Source: Deltaproteobacteria bacterium (lineage in GTDB: Bacteria; Myxococcota_A; Bradymonadia; REDH01). From it: 40,552 bases of DNA. Each line of letters starts with the position of its first letter. Within the stretch, counting starts at the first letter, position 1. The notes below the pieces were generated by a model. It made no database searches and was not told the origin of the DNA. It saw nothing but the letters and a program-made list of their open reading frames with translations. A program made the position numbers and the translations under genes. Of this stretch, positions 4,801 to 40,552 are shown one piece after another. The DNA is taken from assembly GCA_013205435.1 (NCBI GenBank), contig JABMMX010000056.1, forward strand, positions 1 to 40,552. The letters run 5' to 3'.

Positions 4801-6747
4801 AACCGCGAGTTGCAGCGGCGCGAGCGAAAACCCCACGGGCCGCAGCCCATCCGCCAGCGTCACGCCTGCACGCCCTTCGCCCACCAGGTTGACCGCCAGC
4901 TGCCCGCGCGCAGCAGAGAAGCTCCGCAGCCGAACCGCGACCTCCTCCTCCGCCAGCGATGCCCCTGCCGCCAGTTCGAGCGAAAGGCCGCCGGCCGCGC
5001 CACCCGAAACCGACAGGTCGAGTTCACGCCCAACCAGCCGCGCTTTGAGCTTCGTGCGACCCTCGCGCAGCCCTCCCACCTGCACCTGCTCAAGCTGCAG
5101 CGATGCATCCAGCGGGACCTGCGCGCCTGCCTCCTTGTTTACCAGCAGCGCCAACCGTCCCACCTGCTTCTCGCCGGCTGCGAGCCGATCGCCACGCAGC
5201 GCCAGCGCCACCTTGAGCTCCGGCCCGAGCTGCGCCCAGAGCTGCTGCGGGCTTCTCTTGGCGAGCGCCGAGAGTTCGTTCAGCGGCAACAATGCCTCGG
5301 CATCCAGCCGCAGCTCCGCTCCGCCCGACAGCCGCCCCACCGAGCGAGGAACCCAGGGCTCAGCCGAAGCAACATCGGGCACCGAGGCGCGCAGATGAAC
5401 CGTAACCCGACCCTCACGATCAAGACTGCCTGAGCCATCAAGCTCTCCGCCCAGCGCCGCGGCGCTCAGGTCGGTCACAACTGCGCGTCCATCCTGCACG
5501 GTGATGTTCCCGTAGGCTCGCTCCAACGGCAGCCCCGCAAGCAGGCTCGGGCCCACATCCAATTCCACCCGCGCCTTCATGCTCGACGCTGCAAAACCTG
5601 CCCCTTCGACCAAGAGTCGCGCGGTTAGATTCGACCCCGGCCCCGGCAGCTCAATCCATTCTTGCGGACGCAGATGCTGCGCCACCAACGAGCCGCCGTA
5701 GCGCGGCAGCGCGGCATCGCGCAGGTCGACCCAGCCGTCAAAGACCACCGGCTCCCCCACAGAGGCAGCCTCTAGATGAATGCCCACCCGCGACGCCGGT
5801 CCGCCGACCCGCGCCGACAGCTGCAGCGGTCCTCGGAGCTTCAGCCCCGGCACCAGTTCTGCCGCCAACTCAGGCGAGATGTTCCCCTTCGGTAACGAGA
5901 TCTCCACCCTCCCGAATGGCTCGCCCGCCTCGGTCGCCGGCGTCACCTGCACTCGAAAACCGAACAGCTCCGTGTCGCTCACGGCCAGCCTGCTCACCAC
6001 CGCGCGGAGCCCCGACACATCGTTGAGCAGGCTCATCTGGCGGAGCTCCAACGGCAACTCTGCCTTTACCCCGCCCACACGCCAGCGCAGGCCGAGCCGC
6101 TCCAGTTCAAACGCTGCGGCGCGGTCGCGCGACACTGTGGCCGCGCCCGAAAGCGTGAGCTGCCGAAGCGCCACCACCCGGGCGAGCCCGTTCCGACCGT
6201 CGCGAATCGACAGGCTGCTCCCATCCACCTTCAGCGCCTCTACCGAGACCGAAACCGGCAGCCGCTCGGTGCTCGGCGCGGATGGCGTGAACAGCCGGCC
6301 GATGTTGAGACCCCCGTCGGCCTCGATCACACCGTCCGCCTCGAACCCTTCGACCGCAAGCTCCGTCACCACCAGCCGCCGGCTGAGCAGCGGCAAGATG
6401 CGGTAGTTAACCCGTACCTTTGCGACCTTCACAACCGCCACGCCGCTGCCGTCCTCCAGCGCGATCCCCGACAGCTCAAGCGGGCCCCAGAGCGAGCCCG
6501 ATAGCCCGCCCAGACGCATCCGTCCGCCGGCCATCGACCCCGTCACCGCCGAAGCCACCTCGTCGCTCACACGGCCCAGCAGCCAGGCACTCTGCGACGC
6601 CCAGGCAACCACCCCCGCGAGCAGCAGCGCCACCGCAGAAAGGAGCAGCAGGGCGCGACGGCGACGGACCACCTTGCGCGGCGAAACGGGCTCTGGCGGA
6701 GCCTCCAGCTCGGGCTCCGCCTGCGGCTCTGTGAGCAGGTCGCTCAA
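1894..6747 (-). CDS. tamB: Translocation/assembly module TamB (AsmA-like) protein
   Basis: About 1617 aa with an N-terminal TM anchor after a basic patch (RRRRALLLL...), long Gly/Leu beta-rich repeats and a TamB-type C-terminus (VTGTASAPVVRFASDPAMPQEDVLFVLLTG...GKYIAENLFV). Probable TTG start at 6747 overlaps the upstream TGA (TTGA). Confidence 0.85.
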   Translation of the reverse strand: MSDLLTEPQAEPELEAPPEPVSPRKVVRRRRALLLLSAVALLLAGVVAWASQSAWLLGRVSDEVASAVTGSMAGGRMRLGGLSGSLWGPLELSGIALEDGSGVAVVKVAKVRVNYRILPLLSRRLVVTELAVEGFEADGVIEADGGLNIGRLFTPSAPSTERLPVSVSVEALKVDGSSLSIRDGRNGLARVVALRQLTLSGAATVSRDRAAAFELERLGLRWRVGGVKAELPLELRQMSLLNDVSGLRAVVSRLAVSDTELFGFRVQVTPATEAGEPFGRVEISLPKGNISPELAAELVPGLKLRGPLQLSARVGGPASRVGIHLEAASVGEPVVFDGWVDLRDAALPRYGGSLVAQHLRPQEWIELPGPGSNLTARLLVEGAGFAASSMKARVELDVGPSLLAGLPLERAYGNITVQDGRAVVTDLSAAALGGELDGSGSLDREGRVTVHLRASVPDVASAEPWVPRSVGRLSGGAELRLDAEALLPLNELSALAKRSPQQLWAQLGPELKVALALRGDRLAAGEKQVGRLALLVNKEAGAQVPLDASLQLEQVQVGGLREGRTKLKARLVGRELDLSVSGGAAGGLSLELAAGASLAEEEVAVRLRSFSAARGQLAVNLVGEGRAGVTLADGLRPVGFSLAPLQLAVGPGLVEASGSWEESGALAGQLTAKRVDLRALALALAGEQSVGDFAGFLDLDAGLSGSLSAPTGQLTVGLSEISARGLGPYGAKLTANYAPGRMRAEFGLSDGDASRLSASCELPVTVDSGTGQLVWSARRPMEAHWKLEPLALAPFAAAAGLPVTEVAGSLRGEGTVRGRLDALDVTGALTGEGLGGTVSQHGVTVRFDGITTTAGIAYVAAGAGGPSVQARAEVDWQGRRTATLSTALAIDLRAALRDPVKAPAMLSAAKGDFSLKLEPLDVALLPASLRTLLGLISGTVGGSLRWDNRTGRPMLEAYGEVAGLTVQGLEAVDGSLSLQADRTTEVAASVAYGGEPLAEVAGSIAAPLAELLDTAVRATRPLELRAQFEPVSLTRLGLVVPALRKVSGTASGYLDVTGNLVAPRLRGRAVLRGLSSENSRRADVGVEFSATSARVAVSGTICGEQREAELAVSSPLSYEVAWNVPNGAWMDFLSKGERPEPLRWPMEASLHGVEVPLASVASNALLGSQASDLVGLLTADLKVSGSMAAPVVEGAASVTALGVTLAALHRRVENATAEVVFEPGRVELRQLSVQESGSSLRASGHVVLAGLEPASAKLSVALKNFLVTAPKGTAIFVTAKVESAANRAAAGWTASTVIRDSKIAVPEYANAAEYGPTTAGAGVFFVGEDVATDQIGKRKPALLADASGASRGVASVPIRLHVETTGSNRVEHTYADLEYKIGLDVTVAGDSIVPVGTVTLPEGTIRFAGKSFAIRRGLISFDGVGENPMDAVLDIQAAHTLSAQVAVNLPPATTGSPSVTLAVTGTASAPVVRFASDPAMPQEDVLFVLLTGRPIAREESASGDAVAAQQQALATAGSLFIGLLSDRLPGVGVDSLTIESDAQTGRAVSRVEGGKYIAENLFVSGIYIPQAAEDENDFEVALDWIVVRLGADSLRLTLRGGNLGNGGLELLYNMLLQ

Positions 6748-8924
6748 AACGCCTCTCCGAAGGCCATGAAGATGCTCACCCGATCGAGCGGCGCATAGCT
6801 TGCAGGGTCGGTGAGCCGGTAACCGAGATCGAAGCGGAGCGGTCCGATCGGTGTAGCAAGCCGCAGGCCGCTGCCGATGGCCCACTGCGTCCCTTCGTCG
6901 TCAGGCGCGAGCGCAAAGTCGGAGCTCCCGCGCCCCACGCCGCCGCCATCCACGAACAGCGTGCCGTAGAGCCACCGCTTCCCAATCTCGCCGCGGAGCT
7001 CCACATTGCCCAGCCACGATGCGTACCCGCCGACGGGCACCGCCGAACAACGCTCCGAGACCGTCGGGCGCATCAGGCAGCTCGGATCGTAGCTGACCGC
7101 TGCCCCCGTCACCGCAGTCACGCTCGATGGCTCCGCATAATCGTTCGGCCCGAGCCGCCCCTGCGGAAAGCCGCGCACGCTGTCGCCGCCGCCAAGATAG
7201 TAGCGCTCGGTGCGAGGTACGTCGGCGCCGCCAAGCTCCACGAGCAGCCCTGCCTTGGCCCGCGCGGCCAGTACGAGGCGCCGGTGCAGCGGCCTGAAGT
7301 AGCGGAACTCAGGCGTCATCCGGAGGTAACTCGTGTCGCCCACCAGCACGCTCTCCGACACCTTCCCCTCCACCTGCGCCAGGTAGCCGGAACGGGTCGC
7401 GAGCGGGTCGTCGCGCCGGTCGCGGCGGAGCGCCCACGTAACGGCGCCGAGGCTGAACTGGGCCGGCAGCTCGAGGCTCGACGAACCCGAGGCGCCATCG
7501 AGTTTGTCGTCTGGAATGAAGAACACATCCACCGCGTAGCCGAGGTCGGCCCGCAGCCAGCGGCCGAACTGGCGCGAGACCGAAACCTCCGCGCCAGGAT
7601 TCCGATAGGCATACCCGGGCTCGATGCCGGCATCGAACCGCACCGATGTCGACAGGTCGTAGGGGCTGCCGGCTAGCTGCGGCGTTACAAGCGCGGTCTT
7701 CACCGAGCCGATAAGGTCGTTCTGCGCTTCGACGGCATCAAGCTTCTCGGTCGAAAAGCCCAGCAGCGAGAAGCCGTTGGCCAGCCACGCATAGCCTAGC
7801 CGGCCCTCCACATCGACCCGATTGAGGGGCGCGAGCACGCCCCGCCAAAGGGCCGCACCCTTGGTGTAGGTCTCGGTCCGGCCCGTCTCGATGCCAGCGC
7901 CAATACCAAACTTCAACGTCGCAGCGGCCGACTCCGTGACCCTGATTCGGACCGCCACATTCGGGTCCATCGCACGCAGCTTCACGCCCTCGCCGGCTGC
8001 CACCTCGACGGCCTCGCCGATGGGTCTCGACGCAACGCGAACCTCCGCCCATGCCTGACCAGGATGCCGCAGCGAGACCTCGGCCCAGACGCTCTCGTCG
8101 AGCGCCGAGATGTCTGTCTCCGGCAGCACCGCCTCTACCTCCACAAGGCCAAAGACCGAGAGCCGGTAGAGGTCGAACTGGGCATCACGGAGCAGCGACT
8201 GCCGGAAGACCTCGCCACGCCGAATCTGGATGGACCGCGCGATGAGCGCGTCCGGAATTCGGCTGTTGCCCTCCACCTCCAGCCGCCCGAAAACACAGGC
8301 AGGACCGCGGTCCCAGAAGAAGTAGACCTGCACCTCATGGCTCTCGCGATGCACGAACGAGCGCGACTCCACCCGCGCATAGGCATACCCGTTCTCCTGC
8401 AGCCGTGTGCGGATGATCTGCGCCGTCCGCGCGAGATCCTGCTCGCTGAAACGACGGCCCCGCTCCACCGGCAGCCCCGCCAGCAGCACCCGCAGGTCAA
8501 CCTGCCCCACCGACCGCCGGTCGAACTGCACCTCCGAGATCAGGCTCGGCGCCCCCTCCTCCACCGTAAACCGGACATCGACCGACGGCTCATCTTTGCG
8601 CTCCGTCACCTCGAAGTCCGACACCTTCGCATCGAAGTAGCCGCGCGCGTGCAGGAAGGCCTCTACCCGCTGCACATCGGTCGCCACATCGTAGGGGCTG
8701 TAACGGCTCGGCGGCGTGAAGGGATTGTAGGCATCCTCCTGCGTCGCGAGAGCCTCCAGGATCTCCTCTTCGTCGAAGCTCTGCAGCCCCTCAAACCGGA
8801 CAGAGGCCACGCCGAGCTCGGTGCGACCCGGCATCGCGGGCGCCACGGGCCGGCAGCCCGTGAGCAGCACAAGCAACGCAACGGCCACCGATGCCCAACC
8901 CCACATGCGGTAGGCCTTCGTCAA
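6744..8924 (-). CDS. Omp85-family (TamA/BamA-like) outer membrane protein with POTRA domains and lipoprotein signal
   Basis: Three POTRA-like units (RGYFDAKV, NGYAYARV, GNSRIPD), conserved YLGGGDSVRGF loop motif, GLRLATPIGPLRFDLG and terminal GEAF. Lipobox LLTG-C. Start is TTG 8924 (overlapping upstream TGA) or ATG 8906. Confidence 0.9.
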   Translation of the reverse strand: MTKAYRMWGWASVAVALLVLLTGCRPVAPAMPGRTELGVASVRFEGLQSFDEEEILEALATQEDAYNPFTPPSRYSPYDVATDVQRVEAFLHARGYFDAKVSDFEVTERKDEPSVDVRFTVEEGAPSLISEVQFDRRSVGQVDLRVLLAGLPVERGRRFSEQDLARTAQIIRTRLQENGYAYARVESRSFVHRESHEVQVYFFWDRGPACVFGRLEVEGNSRIPDALIARSIQIRRGEVFRQSLLRDAQFDLYRLSVFGLVEVEAVLPETDISALDESVWAEVSLRHPGQAWAEVRVASRPIGEAVEVAAGEGVKLRAMDPNVAVRIRVTESAAATLKFGIGAGIETGRTETYTKGAALWRGVLAPLNRVDVEGRLGYAWLANGFSLLGFSTEKLDAVEAQNDLIGSVKTALVTPQLAGSPYDLSTSVRFDAGIEPGYAYRNPGAEVSVSRQFGRWLRADLGYAVDVFFIPDDKLDGASGSSSLELPAQFSLGAVTWALRRDRRDDPLATRSGYLAQVEGKVSESVLVGDTSYLRMTPEFRYFRPLHRRLVLAARAKAGLLVELGGADVPRTERYYLGGGDSVRGFPQGRLGPNDYAEPSSVTAVTGAAVSYDPSCLMRPTVSERCSAVPVGGYASWLGNVELRGEIGKRWLYGTLFVDGGGVGRGSSDFALAPDDEGTQWAIGSGLRLATPIGPLRFDLGYRLTDPASYAPLDRVSIFMAFGEAF

Positions 8925-9943
8925 AGGCGCTCCACCAGCGGCAGGTAGTCGGCATAGCTCGGAAGCGGCCCCGTGCGGCACCAGAGCAGATCTTCGCGCT
9001 GCTCCACAACACCGGCAAGCGCCATCTCGTCGAGCTGCGACATCGTGTTCGCGAGCCGGATGAATGCCACCTGAAACTGCGCAGGACCGAGCGTCTCAAA
9101 ACTGCCCAGAACCGCGCCCAGCGGCTCGAGCGGCTCGGCAGAGGCAAGGAAGCCGGCGGTCAGCACATACCCCGCCTCCAGGTAGCCGAGCGACCGCCCC
9201 AGCGCTCTGTCCAACCCCCCGCTCGGGCGGCCGTGGCCCGGCAGGATGAGCGAAGGTTCAGGCGCGCTCCGCCACCGCTGCAGCGTCGCCCGATAGCTTG
9301 TCATGTTATCGCCGATCCGTTCGAGCAGCGGCGTGGGAAGACCCAGCACGATGTCGCCCGTCACGAGCCGGTCGCAGGCCTCGTCGTGCCATACACAGTG
9401 AAAGGGATCGTGGCCGCGCGCATCCTCGCATCGAAAGCGGCGGCCTCCCACGGTAATCGCCTCGCCAAAGGCCACGCCCACCGCGCCATGCAGCAGCCCG
9501 TCGCCACCCTGCCGGAAGGCCTTGCCAGAGCGGCCGCTCGCCAGCTGCCGAAGCCGCTCCATCCACTCCGACGGGGCCATCCGGCGACCCAGCCAGACCC
9601 GCCAACTCTCGCAGCGGTCGTAGTAGTCATAGTAGTTCTCAAAAGCTGGCCGCGTCCCCTCCCACACATACTGCGGGCAGCGCCAAGCATCGCCCAGCGC
9701 GACCCCACCACCCATGTGGTCCTCGTGGGTGTGGGTGTAGAAGACCGCCGCGACATCTGCCGGCACCAACCCAAGCTCCGCGAGGCAGGCGCAGAGCTGG
9801 TCGGTCGAATAGGTGAAACCGCTGTCGAAGAGCACCCAGCCCGCACCCGTCTCCATGGCATAGACATTGACCGGCGCCAGCGTGGGCGAGGTCAGCCGGA
9901 ACCGAACAAGACCCGGCTCCAGCTGCTGGACTGCGCTGCTCAT
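8921..9943 (-). CDS. MBL-fold metallo-hydrolase
   Basis: THTHEDH metal motif, VNVY/LFDSG, GH, TGD and PGHG motifs. ATGA overlap with the upstream gene. Confidence 0.9.
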   Translation of the reverse strand: MSSAVQQLEPGLVRFRLTSPTLAPVNVYAMETGAGWVLFDSGFTYSTDQLCACLAELGLVPADVAAVFYTHTHEDHMGGGVALGDAWRCPQYVWEGTRPAFENYYDYYDRCESWRVWLGRRMAPSEWMERLRQLASGRSGKAFRQGGDGLLHGAVGVAFGEAITVGGRRFRCEDARGHDPFHCVWHDEACDRLVTGDIVLGLPTPLLERIGDNMTSYRATLQRWRSAPEPSLILPGHGRPSGGLDRALGRSLGYLEAGYVLTAGFLASAEPLEPLGAVLGSFETLGPAQFQVAFIRLANTMSQLDEMALAGVVEQREDLLWCRTGPLPSYADYLPLVERL

Positions 9944-18323: not shown

Positions 18324-18416
18324 GCCCCGCTCGCGCTAGGAAGTAGGCCCGCAACCTGCTAGCGACCCTCCTTGTCGGCCCTCGGGCCACCTCTACACCT
18401 CCTCCGCAACGACCGC

Positions 18417-21107
18417 ATGGCTCTGGATTTCAAGGCAACCAAGACCTGGAGCGCCATCGCGAAGGTGGGCCTCGTGCTCTTCCTCCTCGCGGGCGGTTCG
18501 TTGCTCTACCCCGTACTGCTGTGTGCGCTCGGAGCAGCGACGGGCGGCGGTGCGGATTCGGGCTTCGGAGCCTGCGCTATCCAGCAGCCCATGCTCCAAT
18601 CACCGGGCTTCGCGGCGGCCGTCTCCGTCATCGGCATCGCGGTCTTCGTGCTTGGCACCTACCAGGCTCGCAATGTGGGCCGCTTTGTGCCACCGAAACC
18701 CGGCACCAGCAAGGCCATGCCGAGCATCCCTGCATCGCCCAAGTTCACAACGGCCAACCCTGCCTTTGCTGCGCAGTCGCACGCCGGCCACGCCACGCTT
18801 GCAACGCCCGCCGCCAGCACGGGTTCTGCCCCCAAAATTGTCCGTCCCCACGCAACGGGCGGCGCCAACCGCGCCGAGCGCGACCCTGCAGACCGCTGGG
18901 CGACGGGCTCCAAGCAGTCCACAACCTTCAGCGACAACCCCTTCGCTGACGACGGGAGCAACCCCTTCGCTGACGCCGGCAGCAATCCGTTCGGCGACAC
19001 CGATACGGGCGGAATCTCCTCTGCCAACCCCTTCGCCGACCAGCATTTTGGCGGGCCAACACCGGCCTCGAGCGGCGCGACCTCGGAGCCCGAGAGCTTC
19101 CAGTCCTTCGCAGACGACCCGTTTGGCATCGAAGAGCCGGTGGGCGTGGGCCTTGGCTTCGGAGACCCGTTCGGCGTGAACGACGGCATGAGCGGTGCCG
19201 ACTCGCTCGACGCCGAGCTCGGCCTGTCAGGTGGCACCGAGATGGCGACGCCACTCACGCCGCCGTCGCAGATTGCGACGCTCTTCGCGCCTCCAACAAC
19301 GGCCGCGATCATCACCCCTCCTCTGCCGACCCGCGACGACAAAGACAAACTCGACTTCAACCTCGACCTTGGCCTCAACGACCCCAAGCTTCGGACGACA
19401 GCCGCCCATGCGGTGGTCGAAACGCCCGTGGTTACATCACCAGCTACGTCGCGCCTGCCGGCTCCCAGTGCCCCGACTCGTCCGGCCGCGCGCCCCGTCT
19501 ATGCGGAGCCAGAACTTCAAGGTGTTCGGCTCGCGCCAAACCTAGCCTTCGGAGAGGAGATCGCCTTCGAGATCCGGGGCAAGCACCTCATGCACGAGGC
19601 CAAGAGCGAGGCCACGGTGCAGCTGGCTTACATCGACCCTACCCGCGGTGTGACGCCCCTCTGGAGCCCGCCCCGTCCGCTGCACGAGTTTGCCGGCGCG
19701 CGCGAACTCGAGCGATCCCCGAAGGCCGTGCTTCGCGTGGCCTGGGAGTCCGTATCCGCCACGATCGTCTCGCTTGCGTCGGCGCCGGGCGCCGGCCCGG
19801 GCCGCATCCGGCTGCTGGTCGCGACCAACCGCTCGGAGGAGATCTCGGCAGCCCCCATCTCCGACAGCCTTGCCGTAGACCTCGCCATCCGCGGTGGCGC
19901 GCTCTTTCGGCCCACGACAGCGTCGCTCCGCGCTCCCGACGGCACCGTCTACGGTATCGGCATTGCGCCAGAAGCCGGCACAGCAAGCATCCGCATCCCA
20001 GACCTCGGAACGGGAAGCTTCGAACTCGAACTACACGACGGCTCTCTGCTGGCGTTGCCCGGTCAACAGCCCTCCAAAACCGTTCAGATCTCCACGCGCG
20101 GCGCGACAGCTGGTTCACTGGATGGCGTAGCGCGCATTACGGTGGTCCAACCCTGCCTCCTGCAAGTGCAGGCGGGCAGCGTAGCCGGCGATGGCTCAGC
20201 GGAGCGTCCCTTCGGCTCCATTGCCGAGGCCGTGTCGCGGCTGCAGGCCGACCGCGCAGCCCCCGACCCGGCGGTGCGCGAGCGGGCGCAGCTCGGCGAG
20301 ATCCGCATCGCCCCTGCCCAAGGGTTGCCCGAGGAGCGACCGCATCAGGCTGCCAGTTCGGGCAATACCCCCTGGTTCAACTGGTGGCGCAGCCATACCC
20401 CAAACACCCAGGTTGCCTGGTTCGACGGAGACGCCGCCACCGCGCGCGCTTCGCACCAGTTCTATCTCGAAGGCGCCCTGCAGGAAGATGTGGTCATCGA
20501 AGGAATGACCCACCTCCGCATCGTGAACGCGGCCTACGCCGAGCTGCGCGAACTCGCGGCGGTCAATACCGGCGAGGCGGCCCGCATCGACGAAGAGTAT
20601 GCCCTGCTACCCTTTACAGTACTCGCTCGTCCGCGTGAGGCGCTCACCCGCTCCTACCGGCTCGAGATTCGCGGCTGCCGCGATGTGTTGGTGGAGGGCC
20701 TCTTCCTGTTCGGCAACGAGTCGCAGAGCGGCGCTCTGATCACCGGCTCTGCCTCGGTGACGCTCAAGCGCTGCATCTTCGCCTTCTTCGCGGCAGGCCC
20801 GACCAAGATTGCGGGCACCTTCGCCGTGGGCCGCGGACTGATGATCGACAAGTCGGGGCTCACAGGCCCAGCCGATGGCATCCGCCTCGACCAGTGCGAG
20901 TTCGGCTGGAACACGGCGGTCCGCAAGAGCGTACAGGTGCGAGCAGCCGCGCTTGCCGTCTACGGCTCCGCTGTAGCCCTCTCACGATGCTACGCCCACC
21001 ACAATCGGGCCGACCTCGAGCCCGCCGACATCATGGCAGACGCCCCCTCGACGCTCTCGGGCGACGCAAACAACCACCGTGAAGCCAACACGGTTTTTAA
21101 GGCTTAG
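18417..21107 (+). CDS. Hypothetical membrane protein: two N-terminal TMs, low-complexity NPF/DPF linker, C-terminal DUF1565/right-handed beta-helix-like region
   Basis: Two hydrophobic segments at the N-terminus; 'GDGSAERPFGSIAEAV' is a DUF1565-type motif; pectin-lyase-like repeats (VTLKRCIF, IRLDQCEFGWNTA, VALSRCYAHHNRA). Confidence 0.65.
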   Translation: MALDFKATKTWSAIAKVGLVLFLLAGGSLLYPVLLCALGAATGGGADSGFGACAIQQPMLQSPGFAAAVSVIGIAVFVLGTYQARNVGRFVPPKPGTSKAMPSIPASPKFTTANPAFAAQSHAGHATLATPAASTGSAPKIVRPHATGGANRAERDPADRWATGSKQSTTFSDNPFADDGSNPFADAGSNPFGDTDTGGISSANPFADQHFGGPTPASSGATSEPESFQSFADDPFGIEEPVGVGLGFGDPFGVNDGMSGADSLDAELGLSGGTEMATPLTPPSQIATLFAPPTTAAIITPPLPTRDDKDKLDFNLDLGLNDPKLRTTAAHAVVETPVVTSPATSRLPAPSAPTRPAARPVYAEPELQGVRLAPNLAFGEEIAFEIRGKHLMHEAKSEATVQLAYIDPTRGVTPLWSPPRPLHEFAGARELERSPKAVLRVAWESVSATIVSLASAPGAGPGRIRLLVATNRSEEISAAPISDSLAVDLAIRGGALFRPTTASLRAPDGTVYGIGIAPEAGTASIRIPDLGTGSFELELHDGSLLALPGQQPSKTVQISTRGATAGSLDGVARITVVQPCLLQVQAGSVAGDGSAERPFGSIAEAVSRLQADRAAPDPAVRERAQLGEIRIAPAQGLPEERPHQAASSGNTPWFNWWRSHTPNTQVAWFDGDAATARASHQFYLEGALQEDVVIEGMTHLRIVNAAYAELRELAAVNTGEAARIDEEYALLPFTVLARPREALTRSYRLEIRGCRDVLVEGLFLFGNESQSGALITGSASVTLKRCIFAFFAAGPTKIAGTFAVGRGLMIDKSGLTGPADGIRLDQCEFGWNTAVRKSVQVRAAALAVYGSAVALSRCYAHHNRADLEPADIMADAPSTLSGDANNHREANTVFKA
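18936..19175 (+). repeat. Coding repeat of NPF(A/G)D (24-nt period) plus DPF motifs
   Basis: AACCCCTTCGCTGAC at 18936 and 18960, AATCCGTTCGGCGAC at 18984, AACCCCTTCGCCGAC at 19026; DPF codons at 19116 and 19164. Confidence 0.85.
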
Positions 21108-23795: not shown

Positions 23796-25616
23796 ATGAA
23801 GAAGGCTGAGTTCATCCGCAACGTCGCAATCATCGCCCACGTCGACCACGGCAAAACGACGCTGGTCGACAAGCTACTGCGTCAGTCTGGCACCGTCGCC
23901 GCCCACAAGGAGATGGCCGAGCGGGCCATGGACAGCAACGATCAGGAGCGTGAGCGCGGCATCACCATCTTGGCCAAGTGCACCACGGTGAACTACAAGG
24001 CCGACAGCGGCGATATTTACACCCTCAACATCGTCGACACACCCGGACACGCCGACTTCGGTGGCGAGGTTGAGCGCGTCCTCAAGATGGTCGACTCGGT
24101 CCTCCTGCTTATCGACGCCGTCGAGGGGCCCATGCCCCAGACCCGCTTCGTGCTCCGGAAGTCGCTGGCGCTGGGCCTCAAGCCCATCGTGGTCATCAAC
24201 AAGATTGACCGCCCGAACGCCCGCCTCGATGAGGTGCTCAACATGTGCTTCGACCTCTTCGTCGCCCTCAAGGCCACGGACGAGCAGCTCGACTTCCCGG
24301 TCATCTACGCCTCTGCCAAGCAGGGCTACGCGATGAACGACCCGAAGGAGCCCGCGATCGACATGCGCCCCATCTTCGAGCGCATCATCAAGTCGGTGCC
24401 GGCACCCGACGCCGACGTCGACGCCCCCTTCTGCATGCAGGTCGCCACCCTCTCCTACGACGCATTCGTTGGTCGCTTGGCCGTCGGCCGCGTCTATGAC
24501 GGTCGCGTTACGGTCGGTTCGCGCGTGGCTGTTCTCGGCCAGAACGATGTGAACAGCTTCGGCCGCATTTCGAAGATTGTCCGCTTCCAGGGCCTTGAGC
24601 GGGTCGAGGCCAGCGAGGCCAAGGCCGGTGACATCATCATGATCGCAGGTCTGGACACCGTCCTCCCCGGCGACACCATCGGCGCGCCGGACGGCACCAA
24701 GCGGCTTCCCGCAATGGAAATCGACGAGCCGACCATCAGCATGCTCTTCATGGTCAACACCTCGCCCTTCGCAGGCCGCGAGGGCAAGTTCGTCACCAGC
24801 CGCCACATCCGTGACCGGCTTATGCGCGAGCTCGAGGCCGACGTCTCGCTCCGCGTCGAAGACACCGAGTCTGCAGAGACCTTCCGCGTCTCCGGTCGCG
24901 GCGAGCTCCACCTCTCGGTCCTCCTCGAGCGTATGCGCCGCGAGGGCTACGAGCTCGCGGTTTCGCAGCCCAAGGTCATTCTCAAGAAGGACGAGAAGGG
25001 CCACACCCTCGAGCCCATGGAAATCGTCGTCGTCGAGTGCGGCGAAGACTACCAGGGCACCGTCATCAACAAGCTCAGCATGCGCAAGGGCGAGCTCAAG
25101 GTGCTTGAGCCCTCGGGCGACGGCATGTGCCGCATGGAGTACCTCATCCCGTCGCGCGGCCTTATCGGCTTCCGCAGCGAGTTCCTTACCGACACGCGCG
25201 GCACCGGCGTGCTCTACTCGAACTTCGACCACTACGCCCCCTTCCGCGGCGATATCGGCGGCCGTGCAAACGGCGCTCTCGTCGCGCTCGAGCCGGGCGA
25301 CACCACCGCCTACGCGCTCTACCGCCTGCAGGACCGCGGCCTCATGTTCATGGGCGCGGCAGAGAACGTCTACGGCGGCCAGATCATCGGTCAGCACGCC
25401 AAGGAGAACGACCTCGTCATCAACCCCTGCACCAAGAAGGCGCTCACCAACATCCGTTCGGCCGGCGCCGACGAGAAGTTGACGCTCGTTCCTCCGCGGC
25501 TCCACACGCTTGAGTCTGCGCTCGAGTGGATTGACGACGATGAGCTTGTCGAGGTCACCCCGAGCAGCATCCGTATCCGCAAGGCCGTCCTCGACCACAA
25601 CCGCCGCAAGCGCTAG
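23796..25616 (+). CDS. typA: Translational GTPase TypA/BipA
   Basis: [76 protein letters not shown]. True start is ATG 23796. Confidence 0.97.
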
Positions 25617-26662
25617 GGCTCCGCGCCCTTCCGCTCCGAGCGCCACGACAGCCCCACAAAGGCGATGTGGCGCTCGAAATCGTTTTGGGCCGAGCTCTCC
25701 GCTCCCAGCCGCTGCAGGTAGCGCTGGTAGCGACCCTCGAGGCCCCAGCCCCCGACGAGCGGTTGCTCGATCGCGATGCTCACCTGGTTGCGGTCTTCGT
25801 CCTCTACGGCCAGCTCCACAACCGAGCCTGCGCCGTCGTAGGCAACGCGCTGCAGCACCCCGCTCAGGCGCCCCACTGCATCGCCCCAGAGGAGCCCGCC
25901 AAGGGTGAGTTCCGCCGTCTCGTGAAGGTAGTCGCCACCGCCCGAGGCATCGCTGCCTGCCGACGCGGCCGTCGCCGAGCCGGCGATCGAGGCAACCCAA
26001 CGCCCGGCATCATACTGCAACTTCGCACCCGTCGACTGCGTCAGGCTCTCGGTCAGCAGGACAGGCGCATCTGCGCTCATGCGGAGCGACGGCTCGTAGG
26101 AGGCGCTGAGCGTTACCGCTTCGCTCGGAGCATAGCTGAGCGTCAGCGCTGCGGTCGGCCCATGCCAGCTCCGGCCACTGTCGGCGGCGTAACCGAACGC
26201 GGCGTAGCCCGCCGCGGCCTCGAACGTGACCTGCTCCCAGGCGCGCGTGCTGCCGACGGTGGCGGCGACCCGCTCATAGTCGCGGGTCATGCCTAGGCCA
26301 TCATCGCCGGGGGCCTCGCTGCGGCCGCGGAACTCCGCGTAGGTGCGGTGGCTCCAGTCGCCGCCACTCGTCCAGTCCAGCCCCCCGCCAACACGCCAGA
26401 CCGCCGCCCAGTCTGCACGGAGCGGCAGCCAGCGCGCCCCTACCTGCGCCTCTGTCGTCAGCAGGCCGTCAGGCCAGGCCAACCGTTCATCCACGTAAGA
26501 AATGGTCCCCTTGGGCCCTGCGACCACGCCCTCTTCGGCGCCAAAGAGGCGCGCTGGATTGCTATCGGACTCCGCGCCGAGCCGGAGAATGAGCTGCCTC
26601 TCCGCGGCCGATGCGACAGCAGGAAGAAGAAGCGAAGCCAAGAGCAGGAGATGCCTAACCAT
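25613..26662 (-). CDS. Putative outer-membrane beta-barrel protein
   Basis: Sec signal MVRHLLLLASLLLPAVASA; 'LGAESDSNP' start typical of barrel proteins; alternating amphipathic strands rich in Y/W/G; last strand HIAFVGLSW. Confidence 0.65.
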   Translation of the reverse strand: MVRHLLLLASLLLPAVASAAERQLILRLGAESDSNPARLFGAEEGVVAGPKGTISYVDERLAWPDGLLTTEAQVGARWLPLRADWAAVWRVGGGLDWTSGGDWSHRTYAEFRGRSEAPGDDGLGMTRDYERVAATVGSTRAWEQVTFEAAAGYAAFGYAADSGRSWHGPTAALTLSYAPSEAVTLSASYEPSLRMSADAPVLLTESLTQSTGAKLQYDAGRWVASIAGSATAASAGSDASGGGDYLHETAELTLGGLLWGDAVGRLSGVLQRVAYDGAGSVVELAVEDEDRNQVSIAIEQPLVGGWGLEGRYQRYLQRLGAESSAQNDFERHIAFVGLSWRSERKGAEP

Positions 26663-26794
26663 CGCTCGCACCGTAGCGCAGCGCTGCCAGCCGTGCCACT
26701 TCCATCGCGGAGGCGAATCGCCGCACCGTTGTTGCCCCATCGCCGCCGCCGCTCTAGCATGACGCGCCCTCGCCCCGAACCTCAAGGTCGCCAC

Positions 26795-27679
26795 ATGCGC
26801 AGTTCCATCATCGTGCTTGTCGCCTGTCTGGCCGCCTGCTCCTCCAAGGAGAGTGTGAGCACCGGAGACTCGGACGCAGGGAGCGGGCAAGACACCTCCG
26901 CCGGCTCGGGTGACGCGACGGGCTCTGGTTCGGGGAACGATGCCGACACGACGCCTGAAGACACCGGCGCATCGGCCTGCGAGCTCACGCTGCCGCCCGC
27001 GACCGGAACCGCCTGCGACTGCCTCGGCGCAACCCGAGACTTCCCCTTCAATGCCACGGGCCCGCTCACCTGCAGCTGCACCGACAGAGGCTGGGCCTGC
27101 GCGGCCGTCGAGCCAGAACCCGATACGACAGCCGATGACACCACCGCAGACACAGCGGTCGACGACACCACGCCCGACGACACCACGCCCGACGACACCG
27201 CCGCAGATACAGCGGTCGACGACACCACCGACGACACCACCGCAGACACGACGCCGGATACCACGCCCGTAGGCCCCTGCGAGGCAGGCGGCGGCGTCTG
27301 CATCGGCATGGGCGGTCCCTGCGAGACCGTGGGCGGCACTCCCTACCCCGCAGGCAACAGCCAGTGTGTCTTCACCGGAGAGCTCGGAAGCTGCTGCGTG
27401 CCACCGCCTGCACAGCCCACGGGCGACACCTGCGCAGACCGCGGCGGCGTCTGCGCCCCCATCGCCGGCTGCAACTTCACCAACAGCGCCTTCGCGCCCA
27501 CCCCGACCCCCAGCTGCGGCTTCGGCGGCATCATCTGCTGCGTGCCCAACACCGTCTGCGGCGAAGAGACCATGCGCTGCTGCGACACGATGACCTCCTT
27601 CCGCCCCGCCTGCGACCGCGGGCAATGGATCTGCACCATCGACGGCACCACCATGCTGCCGATCTCCGAGTGCCCCTAG
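26795..27679 (+). CDS. Cys-rich lipoprotein with Asp/Thr stalk and tandem six-Cys modules
   Basis: MRSSIIVLVACLAA-C lipobox; Gly/Ser/Asp linker; DTT repeats; more than 20 Cys in discrete modules. Confidence 0.8.
   Translation: MRSSIIVLVACLAACSSKESVSTGDSDAGSGQDTSAGSGDATGSGSGNDADTTPEDTGASACELTLPPATGTACDCLGATRDFPFNATGPLTCSCTDRGWACAAVEPEPDTTADDTTADTAVDDTTPDDTTPDDTAADTAVDDTTDDTTADTTPDTTPVGPCEAGGGVCIGMGGPCETVGGTPYPAGNSQCVFTGELGSCCVPPPAQPTGDTCADRGGVCAPIAGCNFTNSAFAPTPTPSCGFGGIICCVPNTVCGEETMRCCDTMTSFRPACDRGQWICTIDGTTMLPISECP
27122..27268 (+). repeat. Coding Asp-Thr-Thr repeat tract (GACGACACCAC-type units)
   Basis: DTTADDTTADTAVDDTTPDDTTPDDTAADTAVDDTTDDTTADTTPDTTP; includes exact 15-nt tandem GACGACACCACGCCC units. 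Confidence 0.85.
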
Positions 27680-33716: not shown

Positions 33717-33790
33717 CGGGGTGTAGCGCAGCCTGGTAGCGCGTCTGCTTCGGGAGCAGAAAGTCGCAGGTTCGAATCCTGTCACCCCGA
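33717..33790 (+). tRNA. tRNA-Pro (anticodon CGG)
   Basis: Acceptor CGGGGTG/CACCCCG plus A discriminator; D-arm with CCTGGTA loop; anticodon arm TCTGC-TTCGGGA-GCAGA; T-arm GCAGG-TTCGAAT-CCTGT. CCA is not encoded. Confidence 0.97.
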
Positions 33791-33868
33791 CTTCCCAAAC
33801 ATCATTTGTAGGCGCGGCCACCACGGGCGGGAGGCCAAGTTCAAAGGTCTCGACCTTCCGTCGCGCCT

Positions 33869-36644: not shown

Positions 36645-37565
36645 GTGTCGACCGAGAACGCCAAACAGACCCGACAGATCACGCTTGTCCGCTCCATCAC
36701 GCTGCCCGGGCAGGAGCAGAAGTTTGATGCCTGCCTGCTCGGTCTTTCGGGCCGTGACATGGGCCGCCGCTTCCTGCTCGCCCAGCGAAAAATCACCATC
36801 GGACGGTCCGAGCAGGCCGACGTCACCATCGATGACGACGACGCGTCGAGGCTCCACTGCGAGATCATCGCGCATCCCGCAGGCGTGATGCTCCAAGATC
36901 TCCAGAGCACCAACGGAACCAAGGTCAACGGCCAGCGGGTCGCGCAGCAGCTGCTTGTCGACGGCGACCAGATCCAGATTGGCGGTTCGGTCTTCCGCTT
37001 CACGCGCGCGAACCACGTCGAGGCCCACTACTTCGACGAGATGTTCCGCCTCACGAACACCGACCCGCTCACGGGCGTCTATAACAAGCGCTACTTCCTG
37101 AGCATGCTCGAACGCGAGCTCGCCCGCGCGGAGCGATACAGGCGTGAATCCGCGGTCCTCATGCTCGACCTCGACTTCTTCAAGAAGGTCAACGACACCT
37201 TCGGCCATGTCGCAGGCGATGCCGTGCTCGTGGAGGCGGCGAAGCGGATCGGGGCTGAGCTAACAAGCGAAGACCTGTTGGCCCGGTTCGGCGGTGAAGA
37301 GTTTGTGGTGCTGCTCGACCAGACCACGCTTGCCGAAGCGGCGCTGGTGGCAGAACGCATCCGCGCCAGCATTGCCGCCTCGCCCATGCTCCACGCGGGC
37401 GCGACGATCCCCGTTACCACCTCCATCGGTGTGAGCGGCCTGCAGGAGGTCGCAGGCGGAGACGACGCTGCCTCACGCACGCAGCGGGTCGAGGCGCTCC
37501 TCACCCTTGCCGACACCAAACTCTACGAGGCCAAAAATGCAGGTCGAAATCGCGTCGTTGTCTAG
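36645..37565 (+). CDS. FHA domain-containing diguanylate cyclase
   Basis: FHA motifs IGRS, ASRLH, DLQSTNGT.VNG; GGDEF domain TDPLTGVYNKRYF, DLDFFKKVNDTFGH, RFGGEEF, AKNAGRN. Start is uncertain (36609, 36639 or 36645). Confidence 0.93.
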   Translation: MSTENAKQTRQITLVRSITLPGQEQKFDACLLGLSGRDMGRRFLLAQRKITIGRSEQADVTIDDDDASRLHCEIIAHPAGVMLQDLQSTNGTKVNGQRVAQQLLVDGDQIQIGGSVFRFTRANHVEAHYFDEMFRLTNTDPLTGVYNKRYFLSMLERELARAERYRRESAVLMLDLDFFKKVNDTFGHVAGDAVLVEAAKRIGAELTSEDLLARFGGEEFVVLLDQTTLAEAALVAERIRASIAASPMLHAGATIPVTTSIGVSGLQEVAGGDDAASRTQRVEALLTLADTKLYEAKNAGRNRVVV

Positions 37566-38559
37566 CCTCCGGCTGCTCCCCTCGCTCCTCCTTCTTCTCG
37601 CTGCTTGCGGTGCCGAGGAGACGGCCTCTAACGAGGCCAATGCGGTCAACGACAGCGGCAGCGACGGCTCCGCTGACGGCAGCGGCACTCCCGAGTGCAT
37701 CACCTTCGCAGGCTCCGGCGAGACGCCCGTCTGCGGCGAACCTGCGACCACCGCGCCGCCCGCGACCGGCCCGGCCCGCGACCCCTCCTGCGGTGCCTCC
37801 TCCAAGTGGGTGACCAGCATCTCGGGCACCATCCTCGACGACGCCGGCGCCCCCGTGCCCTGTGCCAAGGCGCAGGTCTGTGTGCGCGGCGGAAAGCCAG
37901 CCCGCCTCACCTGTCTCCGCCCCGTTGCGACGGCCCAGGACGGCACCTTCACCATTCCGGTCGGAACCGAGGTGCAGTGCATGAGCGAGGCGACGCTCCG
38001 TCTCTTTGCTCCCGCTCGTCCGCTCGCCACCATCTACTGCGGCGTAGACATCGCAGCGGAGGGCGATCTCACCCTCGCCGATACCGGTCGCCTCTTCCGC
38101 CTCCGTGCCCCCGAGAACAGCCCCGACTTCTGCGACAACGCTCTTGCCCAGTCGGTCTCCCTCGATGGCGGGCTTACCGTCGAGGTGCTCCCATCATTGC
38201 TCTCCGATCCCGCCCGCGACCTCCCGCAGCTCTCGGCAACCAAGATCGACCCGACCGCCGAAGGGCTCTGCTTCCTCGGCGCCGACGCGCCTGCCATGCT
38301 CTACGCCTTCGGCCCCGAGACCGACGTTGCGGGCGACGGCTTCGGCTTCTCGCTTCCAAACGACCTAGGCCTTGCCGCCGGCGCGACCGCCAACCTCTAC
38401 ATCCTCGGCGGCCTCTCCACGACCGTGGGTACCGAGAGCGTCAAGGAGGGCGAGTGGCACCTCTACGGCCAGGGCACGGTCTCTGCAGACGGTAACCGTA
38501 TCGTCGCCGACGGTGTGAACGGCCTGCCCTACCTCTCCTGGCTGGGCGTCGCGCCCTAG
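37537..38559 (+). CDS. Hypothetical Cys-rich lipoprotein (carboxypeptidase-regulatory-like beta-sandwich)
   Basis: LLPSLLLLLAA-C lipobox; 'ISGTILDDAGAPV...AQVC...C....T..DGTFTI' pattern; about 10 Cys; overlaps the DGC stop. Confidence 0.72.
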   Translation: MQVEIASLSSLRLLPSLLLLLAACGAEETASNEANAVNDSGSDGSADGSGTPECITFAGSGETPVCGEPATTAPPATGPARDPSCGASSKWVTSISGTILDDAGAPVPCAKAQVCVRGGKPARLTCLRPVATAQDGTFTIPVGTEVQCMSEATLRLFAPARPLATIYCGVDIAAEGDLTLADTGRLFRLRAPENSPDFCDNALAQSVSLDGGLTVEVLPSLLSDPARDLPQLSATKIDPTAEGLCFLGADAPAMLYAFGPETDVAGDGFGFSLPNDLGLAAGATANLYILGGLSTTVGTESVKEGEWHLYGQGTVSADGNRIVADGVNGLPYLSWLGVAP

Positions 38560-38670: not shown

Positions 38671-39852
38671 CTATTCGATGGTGAACTCGTAGGAGGCGCT
38701 GGCGCTGCTGTAACCGTAGACAGCGACGTAGGCGGGGCCAGTGTAGCTGAGCGACTCGGTGCCGGTCGTCTCCTGGCTGACAAGGTCGTTGCCGGCATCA
38801 TCCTTGACGGGACGGTTGTTGGGCACGTCGAGCACGAACATGTCGATGTCACCCGCCGACTGCTCGTAGGTGAGGGTCATCGTCCAGGGGCCAGCCTCGG
38901 TGATCGAGTAGATGTCGGGCGCTGCCGAGCAGATGCCGCCGGTGAAGGAGCCAATACCAACGGGCGTTGCGGTGGTCGCATCGTCGTTGGGCTCGGTGAG
39001 CTCCTCGTCGCCGGGGCCACAGTTGCTGGTGAAGGGAACGGTCGGCGGGCCCCACGAGCCGGCCTCGGGGTCGCGAGCGATCTCAACGAAGTTCAGGTAG
39101 CTGCCGCCCGCGTTCTCAGGGTTGGCGATGACCTGCATGTCGCGGACGCGAATCACGTAGGCGCTCGGGAAGGCGTTCACCTCGCCGAGGGTGTGGAAGT
39201 AGTTGGCGTGGTTGGCGGCGCCGTCGCCGACGGCCCACATGTTGTCCGGGGCGACACCGTTGAGAGTGGCATGCTGGGTTACAAAGCGCTTGGCCTCAGC
39301 ATTGCTGGCCGGCGCGCCCGAGGTGTCTTCAAAGTTCACGACGACGAAGAGACCGCCCTCGGCCTTGAACTCCTCTGCTACGCGAGAGGCGAAGGCGATC
39401 TCGGCGGGGCAGTACTGGCACCACGAGGCAACCACGATGATCGCGAGCGTGTCGATTGGCGCCTCGGTCGACATCGGGTCGGCGCAGGTCTGGTTCTCGA
39501 AGAGCTTGTAGAAGTCGACATCGCCGGCCGCCTGGGTGCCGACGTTGGTCGCGCCGCGCCAGAAGAGGTCCTTCACGGTGTCGCCAAGCTGAAGACCTTC
39601 AGCTGCGCCGAGGTTGGGGTAGACGGGACGGCAGGCGCCGGTGCCCGTATCGGTTGTGCCGCTGTCGGTCTCGGTCGTGCCGGTGTCGGTCGTGCCAGTG
39701 TCTTCGGTCGTGGCGCCCGAGCCGCTGGTGCCGGTGTCGGCTGTGCCGCCGCCGCCGCCCGATCCGCCGCGGTTCGTCGCCGCATCATCGCTGCTGCAGC
39801 CGGCAGCCGAAATCATCACAAGCAGGCTCAACGTCAGACTCTTACGGACCAT
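38671..39852 (-). CDS. TlpA/redoxin-like lipoprotein with C-terminal PPC domain
   Basis: MVRKSLTLSLLVMISAAG-C lipobox; Gly/Thr/Asp linker; ASWCQYC; cis-Pro AFP; EPNDD...DIY...GDIDMFV...YVAVYGY PPC-type domain. Confidence 0.82.
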   Translation of the reverse strand: MVRKSLTLSLLVMISAAGCSSDDAATNRGGSGGGGGTADTGTSGSGATTEDTGTTDTGTTETDSGTTDTGTGACRPVYPNLGAAEGLQLGDTVKDLFWRGATNVGTQAAGDVDFYKLFENQTCADPMSTEAPIDTLAIIVVASWCQYCPAEIAFASRVAEEFKAEGGLFVVVNFEDTSGAPASNAEAKRFVTQHATLNGVAPDNMWAVGDGAANHANYFHTLGEVNAFPSAYVIRVRDMQVIANPENAGGSYLNFVEIARDPEAGSWGPPTVPFTSNCGPGDEELTEPNDDATTATPVGIGSFTGGICSAAPDIYSITEAGPWTMTLTYEQSAGDIDMFVLDVPNNRPVKDDAGNDLVSQETTGTESLSYTGPAYVAVYGYSSASASYEFTIE

Positions 39853-39904
39853 GTGCAGACTCCCGAAAAATTGCGCTCTGGCACCACAATAGGGCCGTGC
39901 GGAA

Positions 39905-39934
39905 TTGACCAAAGGCACCCTGCCACACTAGAAA
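39905..39934 (+). promoter_or_regulatory. Possible sigma70-type promoter in the divergent intergenic region
   Basis: TTGACC (39905-39910), 18-nt spacer, TAGAAA (39929-39934) upstream of ATG 39975. Confidence 0.3.
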
Positions 39935-39974
39935 AGTTGTCGCAAGCGCACGCCGCACTTTTTGGTGATTCCTC

Positions 39975-40552
39975 ATGAACTTTGCCGCATTCCGACTCGC
40001 CCTCCCCGCTGCCCTGCTGCTTTCGACGCTGACCGGCTGCGAAGATGCTGGCGCCTGCGGCGAAGTCACCGCCGTTCCGCGGCCGACCTACCCTGCTGCG
40101 CCCTACGGCACAGCCGCCGGCACGACCCTCGCGAACCTCTCCTTTGCCGACCCGGACGGCACCTCCACCGTAGACCTGCAGAGCCTCCGCGCCGCGGGCG
40201 ACAAGCGGCTCCTTCTCGTCATCACCTCTGCTGGCTGGTGCTCGGCCTGCATCGAGGAGCAGCCCGAACTTAACCGGCTCTACGACACCTACAAAGGTTG
40301 TGGTCTCGAGGTGCTGCTCTCGGTCTTCGAAGATAACCAGACCAACCCGGCCACGCCTGCCGTCGCTGCCCAGTGGAAGAGAAGCTACAGCAACACCTTC
40401 CCCGTCGTCGCTGACGCACCCTTTGTGCTCAAAGACTACTACGACGAAAGCTACACGCCGATGGTCATGTTCGTCGACCTCGAGACCATGGAAATCCTCA
40501 GTATCTCCACCGGCCAGGTGGACCAATCGACGGAAGGGTTCATCCAACAGCA
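39975..40552 (+). CDS. TlpA/redoxin-like lipoprotein (3' truncated; absent from the ORF track)
   Basis: Manual translation: MNFAAFRLALPAALLLSTLTG-C...RPTYPAAPYG...LLLVITSAGWCSACIEEQPEL...FED...FPVVAD...YTPMVMFVD; open to the window end. Confidence 0.88.
   Translation, partial: MNFAAFRLALPAALLLSTLTGCEDAGACGEVTAVPRPTYPAAPYGTAAGTTLANLSFADPDGTSTVDLQSLRAAGDKRLLLVITSAGWCSACIEEQPELNRLYDTYKGCGLEVLLSVFEDNQTNPATPAVAAQWKRSYSNTFPVVADAPFVLKDYYDESYTPMVMFVDLETMEILSISTGQVDQSTEGFIQQ

Follow-up and report, generated by a model that had tools for sequence, protein, structure and literature searches.

The DNA analysed here, a stretch of 40,552 nucleotides (positions 1 to 40,552 of contig JABMMX010000056.1, assembly GCA_013205435.1; hereafter the window), carries on its forward strand, at 26795-27679, a gene for a protein of 294 residues. 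The C-terminal 137 residues of this protein, hereafter the head, consist of three successive six-cysteine modules, and the first two of these, modules A and B, have a cysteine framework that resembles that of the beta-defensins of animals. The host of the gene is an uncultured lineage of Myxococcota (Bradymonadia-like). We read the protein as a lipid-anchored, acidic tether that would bear a compact three-module head with beta-defensin-like tandem modules and a binding or inhibitory role; as a whole, this reading seems to us slightly better than evenly balanced. The elements of the gene are as follows, each with the evidence for it in brackets (dN/dS, ratio of nonsynonymous to synonymous substitution rates).

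26795..27679, forward: lipoprotein precursor gene, 294 codons plus the stop codon (open frame, translation, homologues, dN/dS)
26795..26839, forward: predicted signal peptide MRSSIIVLVACLAAC, residues 1-15, with the lipobox L-A-A-C, Cys15 as the putative lipidated residue and Ser at +2 (sequence, family alignments)
26840..26977, forward: tether rich in G, S, D and T, residues 16-61, net charge -8 (composition; aligns poorly within the family)
26978..27103, forward: N-terminal six-cysteine domain, residues 62-103, present only in some family members (23-sequence alignment)
27104..27277, forward: acidic stalk, mainly T, D, A and P, residues 104-161, net charge -19 (composition; partly tandem DNA repeats)
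27278..27403, forward: module A, C-x6-C-x6-C-x14-C-x8-CC-V-P, residues 162-203, from C162 to CC200-201, net charge -3 (sequence; homology to module B)
27404..27430, forward: conserved Pro-rich connector PPAQPTGDT, residues 204-212 (P203, P204 and G210 invariant or near-invariant in the alignment)
27431..27547, forward: module B, C-x6-C-x5-C-x14-C-x6-CC-V-P, residues 213-251, from C213 to CC248-249, net charge 0, with the invariant motif GG-x-C-APIAG-C (sequence, alignment, AlphaFold, Foldseek)
27548..27676, forward: terminal module T, C-x6-CC-x9-C-x6-C-x12-C-P, residues 252-294, with six invariant cysteines and the motif FRPxCDRG (sequence, alignment, model of the 137-residue head)

The cysteine modules and their conservation

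The forward frame at 26795-27679 is free of stop codons over its 294 codons. When the head-coding region was compared with the orthologous loci L001, L002 and L004, dN/dS was 0.105, 0.164 and 0.151, respectively, and the differences fell mostly at third codon positions. The frame is a real gene under selection. An antisense open reading frame (ORF) at 27343-27675 on the reverse strand (111 codons; GC content at third codon positions 0.91) overlaps the head-coding region and was rejected as a third-position shadow of the forward frame.

The first-pass annotation of this DNA had described two homologous six-cysteine modules, and translation reproduced their spacings, their coordinates and the 153-nt distance between their starts exactly. 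A loose regular expression for the six-cysteine framework matched only modules A and B across the six frames of the window, and triplet shuffles of the window (n=50) gave a mean of 0.02 framework matches. Profiles of the two modules, built from 10 genomes each, were aligned by hhalign with a probability of 75% and an E-value of 2.4e-5 over 39 columns, the six cysteines being in register. Judged from this profile alignment, modules A and B are mutually homologous, as had been proposed.

The cysteines of the head are strictly conserved. Across 23 aligned sequences, with identity as low as 36%, all 18 are invariant, and so are the G-G before Cys2 and the A-P-I-A-G between Cys2 and Cys3 of module B, as well as G256, E258 and D274-x-G276 of module T. 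At least 90% of these sequences keep the N-F after Cys3 of module B, the F-R-P motif and R275. The chain ends 1-3 residues past the last cysteine in the 23 aligned homologues. Across the family, all six cysteine columns were retained in 219 of 228 module instances; the nine exceptions comprise four truncated fragments, one instance whose aligned segment is without the first cysteine, two alignment shifts and two real losses, in P0057 and P0091. The spacing between the first two cysteines is 6 in every module parsed by the regular expression, and the remaining spacings in the 228 modules span 5-7 (C2-C3), 9-18 (C3-C4) and 4-10 (C4-C5).

The architectures were surveyed with hidden Markov models (HMMs) over 129 family proteins, in which D denotes a defensin-like module and T the terminal module. 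The arrangement D-D-T was found in 102 of the 129 proteins. Fifteen have D-T, of which several are fragments and two (P0122 and P0130) are complete; four have T only, two have D only, and TDDT, DTDT, TT, TDT, DD and DDD occur once each. The terminal module is present in 125 of the proteins. From these variants each six-cysteine module is seen to be an evolutionary unit, which suggests that each may close three disulfides of its own. The lipoprotein P0133 carries three D modules and lacks T; like P0064 and P0119, it exemplifies the alternative architectures, which include duplicated sets of module and terminal module.

Predicted fold and comparison with beta-defensins

The head was modelled with AlphaFold2 from a 100-sequence alignment. 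The mean predicted local distance difference test score (pLDDT) was 93.6, the predicted template-modelling score (pTM) was 0.87 and no segment fell below 50; module T showed high-pLDDT blocks of 96-97. By this confident model, the head is predicted to be a single compact body of three modules, the two homologous ones followed by the third, and not beads on a string. The first-pass annotation had supposed a two-module array. This part of the proposal was not borne out, because the conserved unit is instead a three-module head of 18 cysteines and 137 residues. The 18 cysteines would form nine disulfides, as would be expected from lipoprotein and Dsb biology. A Foldseek search with the head among the BFVD viral models gave nothing below E 2, and the ESM Atlas gave no usable match with the head or with module B.

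Module B was also modelled alone (47 residues; pLDDT 78.2, pTM 0.54), and its secondary-structure string was the same as in the head model. DSSP assigned Cys2 to the first strand and the CC doublet to the final one in both models, with a short N-terminal helix at Cys1. When the model of module B was compared by Foldseek with 350,542 chains of the PDB, all six matches at E<=10 were proteins of the beta-defensin fold: human beta-defensin 2 (hBD-2), tick carboxypeptidase inhibitor (TCI) and APETx1. They are listed here with the template-modelling score (TM) and the root-mean-square deviation (rmsd).

hBD-2, 1e4q: E 1.3, TM 0.57 by target, rmsd 2.8 Å
TCI, 1zlh_B: E 1.6, TM 0.47 by query, rmsd 3.3 Å
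hBD-2, 1fd3_B: E 2.0, TM 0.56 by target, rmsd 2.5 Å
hBD-2, 1fd3_A: E 3.7, TM 0.57 by target, rmsd 2.4 Å
TCI, 2jto: E 5.7, TM 0.49 by query, rmsd 3.3 Å
APETx1, 1wqk: E 7.0, TM 0.19 by query, rmsd 4.4 Å

In these superpositions the first five matches span 40-43 columns at 27-29% sequence identity, with 28-29% for TCI, and the APETx1 match spans only 25 columns, at 28%. For hBD-2 (1fd3 and 1e4q), 40-41 columns of the predicted module were superposed at 27-28% identity, with TM 0.56-0.57 by target and rmsd 2.4-2.8 Å. Neither EGF nor any other abundant cysteine-rich fold was among the PDB matches at E<=10. Neighbours drawn solely from one small fold class, with EGF absent, are hard to put down to chance.

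The cysteine frameworks can be compared directly. The spacing consensus of beta-defensins is C-x6-C-x4-C-x9-C-x6-CC, and hBD-1 and hBD-3 carry a Gly pair before Cys2. Modules A and B have six cysteines each, at spacings (6-6-14-8 and 6-5-14-6) close to this consensus, and they are like vertebrate beta-defensins in C1-x6-C2, in the Gly pair before Cys2 and in the C-terminal CC. The C2-C3 and C3-C4 loops, in contrast, are longer here than in beta-defensins and contain helical turns. The available part of two articles (PMC7203481, PMC11561630) describes the trans-defensin fold, to which beta-defensins belong, as a set of antiparallel beta-strands, the last of which gives off two disulfides that point in opposite directions, and that of the former (2020) gives the disulfide pairing as 1-5, 2-4 and 3-6. 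In the family studied here, the homologue P0057 has lost both Cys2 and Cys4 of module B, and this joint loss fits a 2-4 disulfide. In the predicted head, the tandem modules combine a beta-defensin framework, in which GG-x-C precedes Cys2 and the last strand bears the CC doublet, and a backbone closest to those of hBD-2 and TCI.

Several observations weigh against a beta-defensin fold. The six Foldseek matches are individually non-significant (E 1.3-7.0, probability <=0.25), and the identity of the fold is for this reason suggestive only. Foldseek also scores amino acids, so that aligned cysteines raise the matches, and AlphaFold is possibly biased to known cysteine-rich folds. The model of the isolated module B is only moderately confident. 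With the whole head as the query, Foldseek found no match among the same PDB chains (best E 6.9, no defensin). The C3-C4 loop exceeds that of the beta-defensin consensus, and short helical turns occupy it in the models. In P0091, a fragment of 98 residues, Cys2 is gone and Cys4 is kept. Searches of Pfam and NCBIfam and profile searches of PDB sequences revealed no tie to defensins, by sequence or by profile.

It is possible to explain part of these facts by a likeness that is superficial, the modules being an independent bacterial disulfide knot of another fold or connectivity, whose Foldseek neighbours would result from the cysteine spacing and from AlphaFold bias. The low Foldseek scores, the pLDDT of only 78 for the isolated module, the missing profile-level similarity to defensins and the extra helical turns in a longer C3-C4 loop would all be expected in that case. 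The restriction of all six matches, among 350,542 chains, to one small fold class would not, however, nor would five matches with TM 0.47-0.57 that cover nearly the full length of hBD-2. The recurrence of the secondary-structure string in the high-confidence model of the head, the joint loss of Cys2 and Cys4 in P0057 and the position of the CC doublet on the final strand also speak against it. We consider a superficial likeness rather unlikely, but it is the alternative that we take most seriously.

At the sequence level, the whole protein had no real family match and no match to a defensin model in Pfam or NCBIfam at E up to 10. A Pfam New_glue match to the low-complexity N-terminus (E 0.019, below the cut-off) was discarded as spurious. 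The beta-defensin families of Pfam are Defensin_beta, Defensin_beta_2 and Defensin_big, and none of them matched the whole protein or any of 20 isolated modules at E up to 10. The 20 modules gave noise only against Pfam, with Defensin_3 in one (E 3.5) and EGF_3 in one (E 0.2), and the sole match of the profile searches of PDB sequences was the EGF of MSP1, at a non-significant E of 0.24-0.4. By sequence, the modules lie outside every described defensin family. The Myxococcus cysteine-rich repeat (TIGR02232 / DUF4215 type) likewise consists of cysteine-rich repeated modules of exported myxobacterial proteins, but no repeat model of NCBIfam or Pfam matches here at E up to 10. A match to such a described generic repeat, which the first-pass annotation had named as a result that would speak against its proposal, was looked for in these two databases and not found.

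The two EGF matches might be taken to mean that the modules are EGF-like, or represent another common six-cysteine domain or a thiolate metal-binding cluster, and a 2-4 pairing is a feature of EGF domains as well, whose six cysteines pair 1-3, 2-4 and 5-6. EGF structures are abundant in the PDB, however, and none was among the Foldseek matches; the CC doublet is incompatible with the 5-6 pairing of EGF. An even and invariant number of cysteines in an exported protein points to disulfides, and the sequence contains no His or Cys-x-x-Cys metal motifs. We therefore regard an EGF-like domain or a metal cluster as very improbable.

The first-pass proposal of a beta-defensin fold thus stands in part. 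The structural neighbours of module B and the paired cysteine loss in P0057 agree with it; the E-values of these neighbours, the missing sequence link and the loss of Cys2 alone in P0091 do not. A beta-defensin-like backbone of module B is backed by prediction and is suggestive, but unproven.

Membrane anchor, tether and possible role of the head

The L-A-A-C of the N-terminus satisfies the lipobox pattern [LVI][ASTVI][GAS]C, and 87 of 99 homologues have a lipobox by a loose regular expression. Cys15 is conserved in at least 90% of the 23-sequence family alignment, and a second family alignment has a near-invariant N-terminal cysteine column. The protein is thus predicted to be a lipid-anchored bacterial lipoprotein, in agreement with the first-pass annotation. 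It would be exported by Sec and then lipidated at Cys15, and so anchored to the membrane, in the manner of established lipoprotein biogenesis. In Myxococcus, lipoproteins follow a Lys(+2) retention rule; the Ser at +2 here implies that the protein is probably destined for the outer membrane.

A disordered and strongly acidic tether of about 145 residues, encoded by repeats, bears the head; the net charge of the mature protein is -36. The acidic stalk that had been noted earlier was recovered as residues 104-161. Tandem DNA repeats at 27132-27249, with periods of 12, 15, 27 and 57 (Tandem Repeats Finder), encode part of this D/T-rich stalk. Close homologues, whose heads are 85-98% identical, differ in total length from 203 to 317 residues, most of them having 278-317. 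These facts suggest repeat-driven variation of the stalk length between strains.

The N-terminal six-cysteine domain, with the spacing C-x11-C-x-C-x20-C-x-C-x6-C, is flanked by two disordered tethers and occurs in the family in two divergent versions. It had zero Pfam or NCBIfam matches. The idea that it is a copy of module T found no support, since the HMM of the terminal module gave no domain match to it in P0002 and its best E-value, in a close homologue, was 0.58.

The function of the head is the weakest link of our reading. The first-pass annotation had thought of the array as perhaps an adhesin, a protease inhibitor or a prey-contact factor. The head would be a rigid, protease-resistant binding unit, held tens of nanometres off the membrane by the tether. 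Non-cationic proteins of the beta-defensin fold are enzyme inhibitors, such as TCI and helianthamide, or channel ligands. Since TCI is the closest structural analogy, we favour an inhibitor or decoy that would bind tightly to a hydrolase, either secreted or periplasmic; as an alternative, the tethered head may be a surface adhesin, a receptor or another ligand-binding unit. The lack of a gene neighbourhood conserved beyond close relatives and of fused forms, which leaves nothing there that bears on function, counts against this part of the reading.

The comparison with TCI shows both likeness and difference. TCI contains two tandem beta-defensin-like six-cysteine domains in one chain, and modules A and B are likewise tandem and homologous. 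TCI is not antimicrobial but an inhibitor that works by binding protein. It is, however, a free secreted animal protein of 75 residues, whose own C-terminal tail plugs the active site of the carboxypeptidase. A free tail of this type is missing here, where module B is followed by the third six-cysteine module and the chain ends one residue past the last cysteine. Unlike those of TCI, the modules are predicted to pack together, and there is no known carboxypeptidase partner. In the available part of a 2019 article, no structure other than TCI is described as having two beta-defensin repeats (PMC6339383). The same part likens to TCI the domain at the N-terminus of rusticalin, from ascidians, placozoans and a coral, two repeats rich in cysteine with a beta-defensin-like fold by remote-homology methods (PMC6339383). 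Rusticalin is an animal protein fused to an MD-peptidase domain, and we liken it to the modules by its description.

The beta-defensin-like framework, and the predatory habit of related Myxococcota, might suggest that the protein is a precursor of antimicrobial defensin-like peptides, released by proteolysis against competitors or prey. Antimicrobial defensins, and the beta-defensins of animals among them, are small, free, cationic peptides. The modules here are parts of a bacterial lipoprotein of 294 residues, predicted to be packed in one body and to carry a lipid anchor. Their net charges are -3 (A) and 0 (B); the whole head has -7, and the median for heads of the family is -8. No stand-alone forms of 20-76 residues were found in a search that is itself weak evidence. 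As the modules are neutral or acidic and were never found as free peptides, a cationic, membrane-active defensin is not what they appear to be. A classical antimicrobial role is unlikely, as the first-pass annotation had suspected, and a proteolytic precursor of this kind seems to us scarcely credible.

The head might also be a passive structural cap or spacer of an envelope lipoprotein, comparable to the cysteine-rich stalks of other myxobacterial surface proteins and without a ligand or an inhibitory role. The absence of a conserved partner gene and of any enzymatic or known binding domain would agree with such a cap, as would the variable length of the stalk. Against it stands the conservation of loop motifs that disulfides do not need: GG-x-C-APIAG-C-NF, FRPxCDRG and GGT are invariant or at least 90% kept, down to 36% identity. 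The dN/dS of 0.10-0.16 argues in the same direction, and so does the placement of the head, which occupies the far end of the tether as a functional tip would. A passive cap is in our view improbable, and we retain a tethered inhibitor or decoy head as the favoured role.

Distribution, gene context and implications

A word-indexed search gave 49 homologues, and an exhaustive search of representatives at 50% identity gave 89 matches at E<=1e-3, of which three were false. These three (P0083, P0112 and P0118) are large low-complexity or repeat proteins without cysteine modules. No fused longer proteins (516-2000 residues) were found; this search, too, is weak evidence in itself. A scan of species-representative genomes gave 11 loci (L001 to L011), all of them in metagenome-assembled genomes (MAGs), whose titles read Bradymonadia, Polyangiales, Myxococcales, Myxococcaceae, Myxococcota, delta proteobacterium, Deltaproteobacteria and "uncultured proteobacterium". 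Among the scanned species representatives, the family is found only in Myxococcota-type MAGs; the scan was based on two peptide patterns, which distant members would escape.

Four of the loci (L001-L004) are close relatives, at 80-96% identity. The gene order typA, a gene for an unknown exported protein, the lipoprotein gene, def and fmt is complete in L002 and L004, and the short contigs of L001 and L003 hold only the lipoprotein gene, def and fmt. The neighbours in L005-L011 are unrelated (among them MatE, TatD, a thioredoxin-like gene, bestrophin, SPFH, M23 and M66 peptidases and a kinase). Since the order is common only to close relatives, the context is uninformative on function. In the window, def starts 29 nt downstream of the stop codon of the lipoprotein gene with no terminator-like site between them, and co-transcription of the two genes is possible. 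No promoter-like or terminator-like sites were found around the lipoprotein gene.

Some further features of the surroundings are worth recording. A divergent ORF of about 360 codons at 25613-26701 on the reverse strand, whose N-terminus (MVRHLLLLASLLLPAVASA) resembles a signal peptide, belongs to no Pfam family and is syntenic in L002 and L004 only. In L006, a thioredoxin/AhpC-TSA-like ORF (4332-5663, forward) begins right where the lipoprotein homologue stops; in the window, an AhpC/TSA-Redoxin ORF lies at 39969-40550, about 12 kb from the lipoprotein gene. A link of the thioredoxin-like neighbour to disulfide formation is possible, but this neighbour is not conserved in the other loci. At 1894-9095 on the reverse strand, the window carries a gene pair for a TamB-like protein (1668 residues) and an Omp85/POTRA protein (783 residues), that is, an outer-membrane translocation-and-assembly module. 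Three long ORFs rich in GC at third positions, at 18363-21107 (forward), 37435-38559 (forward) and 38671-39927 (reverse), encode 914, 374 and 418 residues and have no Pfam family at E<=1e-5. A tRNA-Pro gene (CGG) at 33717-33791, forward, is the sole Rfam or ARAGORN match in the window.

Disulfide-rich defensin-type domains are already described in bacteria. The available parts of two articles report cis-defensins, such as AdDLP, xanthusin-1 and actifensin, from Myxococcota and Actinobacteria (PMC11561630, PMC8819291), and actifensin is assigned to the cysteine-stabilized alpha-beta (CS-alpha-beta) type in the part seen of a 2025 article (PMC12284004). The cis-defensins belong to another superfamily, with the pattern C...CxxxC...C...CxC, two parallel disulfides and the form of free peptides, whereas the modules described here carry the trans-type CC doublet and reside in a lipoprotein. 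In the accessible portion of a 2024 survey of 74 bacterial cis-defensins, trans-defensins are placed in vertebrates and some invertebrates, and bacteria have the cis type only (PMC11561630); the corresponding portion of the 2020 article holds that trans-defensins evolved in animals exclusively (PMC7203481). Our literature search, whose scope was the journals open without subscription, found no paper that describes a bacterial protein with a fold of the beta-defensin type.

On a bolder reading, the trans-defensin fold would not be an invention of animals. The modules would be true homologues of it, and the superfamily would have arisen in bacteria or crossed between bacteria and early animals; its ancestral job would have been to bind or inhibit proteins from an anionic setting tethered to the membrane, and not to attack membranes. 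We hold this to be improbable, and return to the more limited reading of a lipid-anchored, three-module head with beta-defensin-like modules. If a structure confirms the prediction, the family, which has no Pfam entry, would be the first bacterial example of the beta-defensin fold, and it would bear on the question whether defensins converged or share a common descent. The family would likewise be the second natural tandem beta-defensin-like architecture beside TCI, and would represent a new compact nine-disulfide scaffold displayed on the bacterial envelope.

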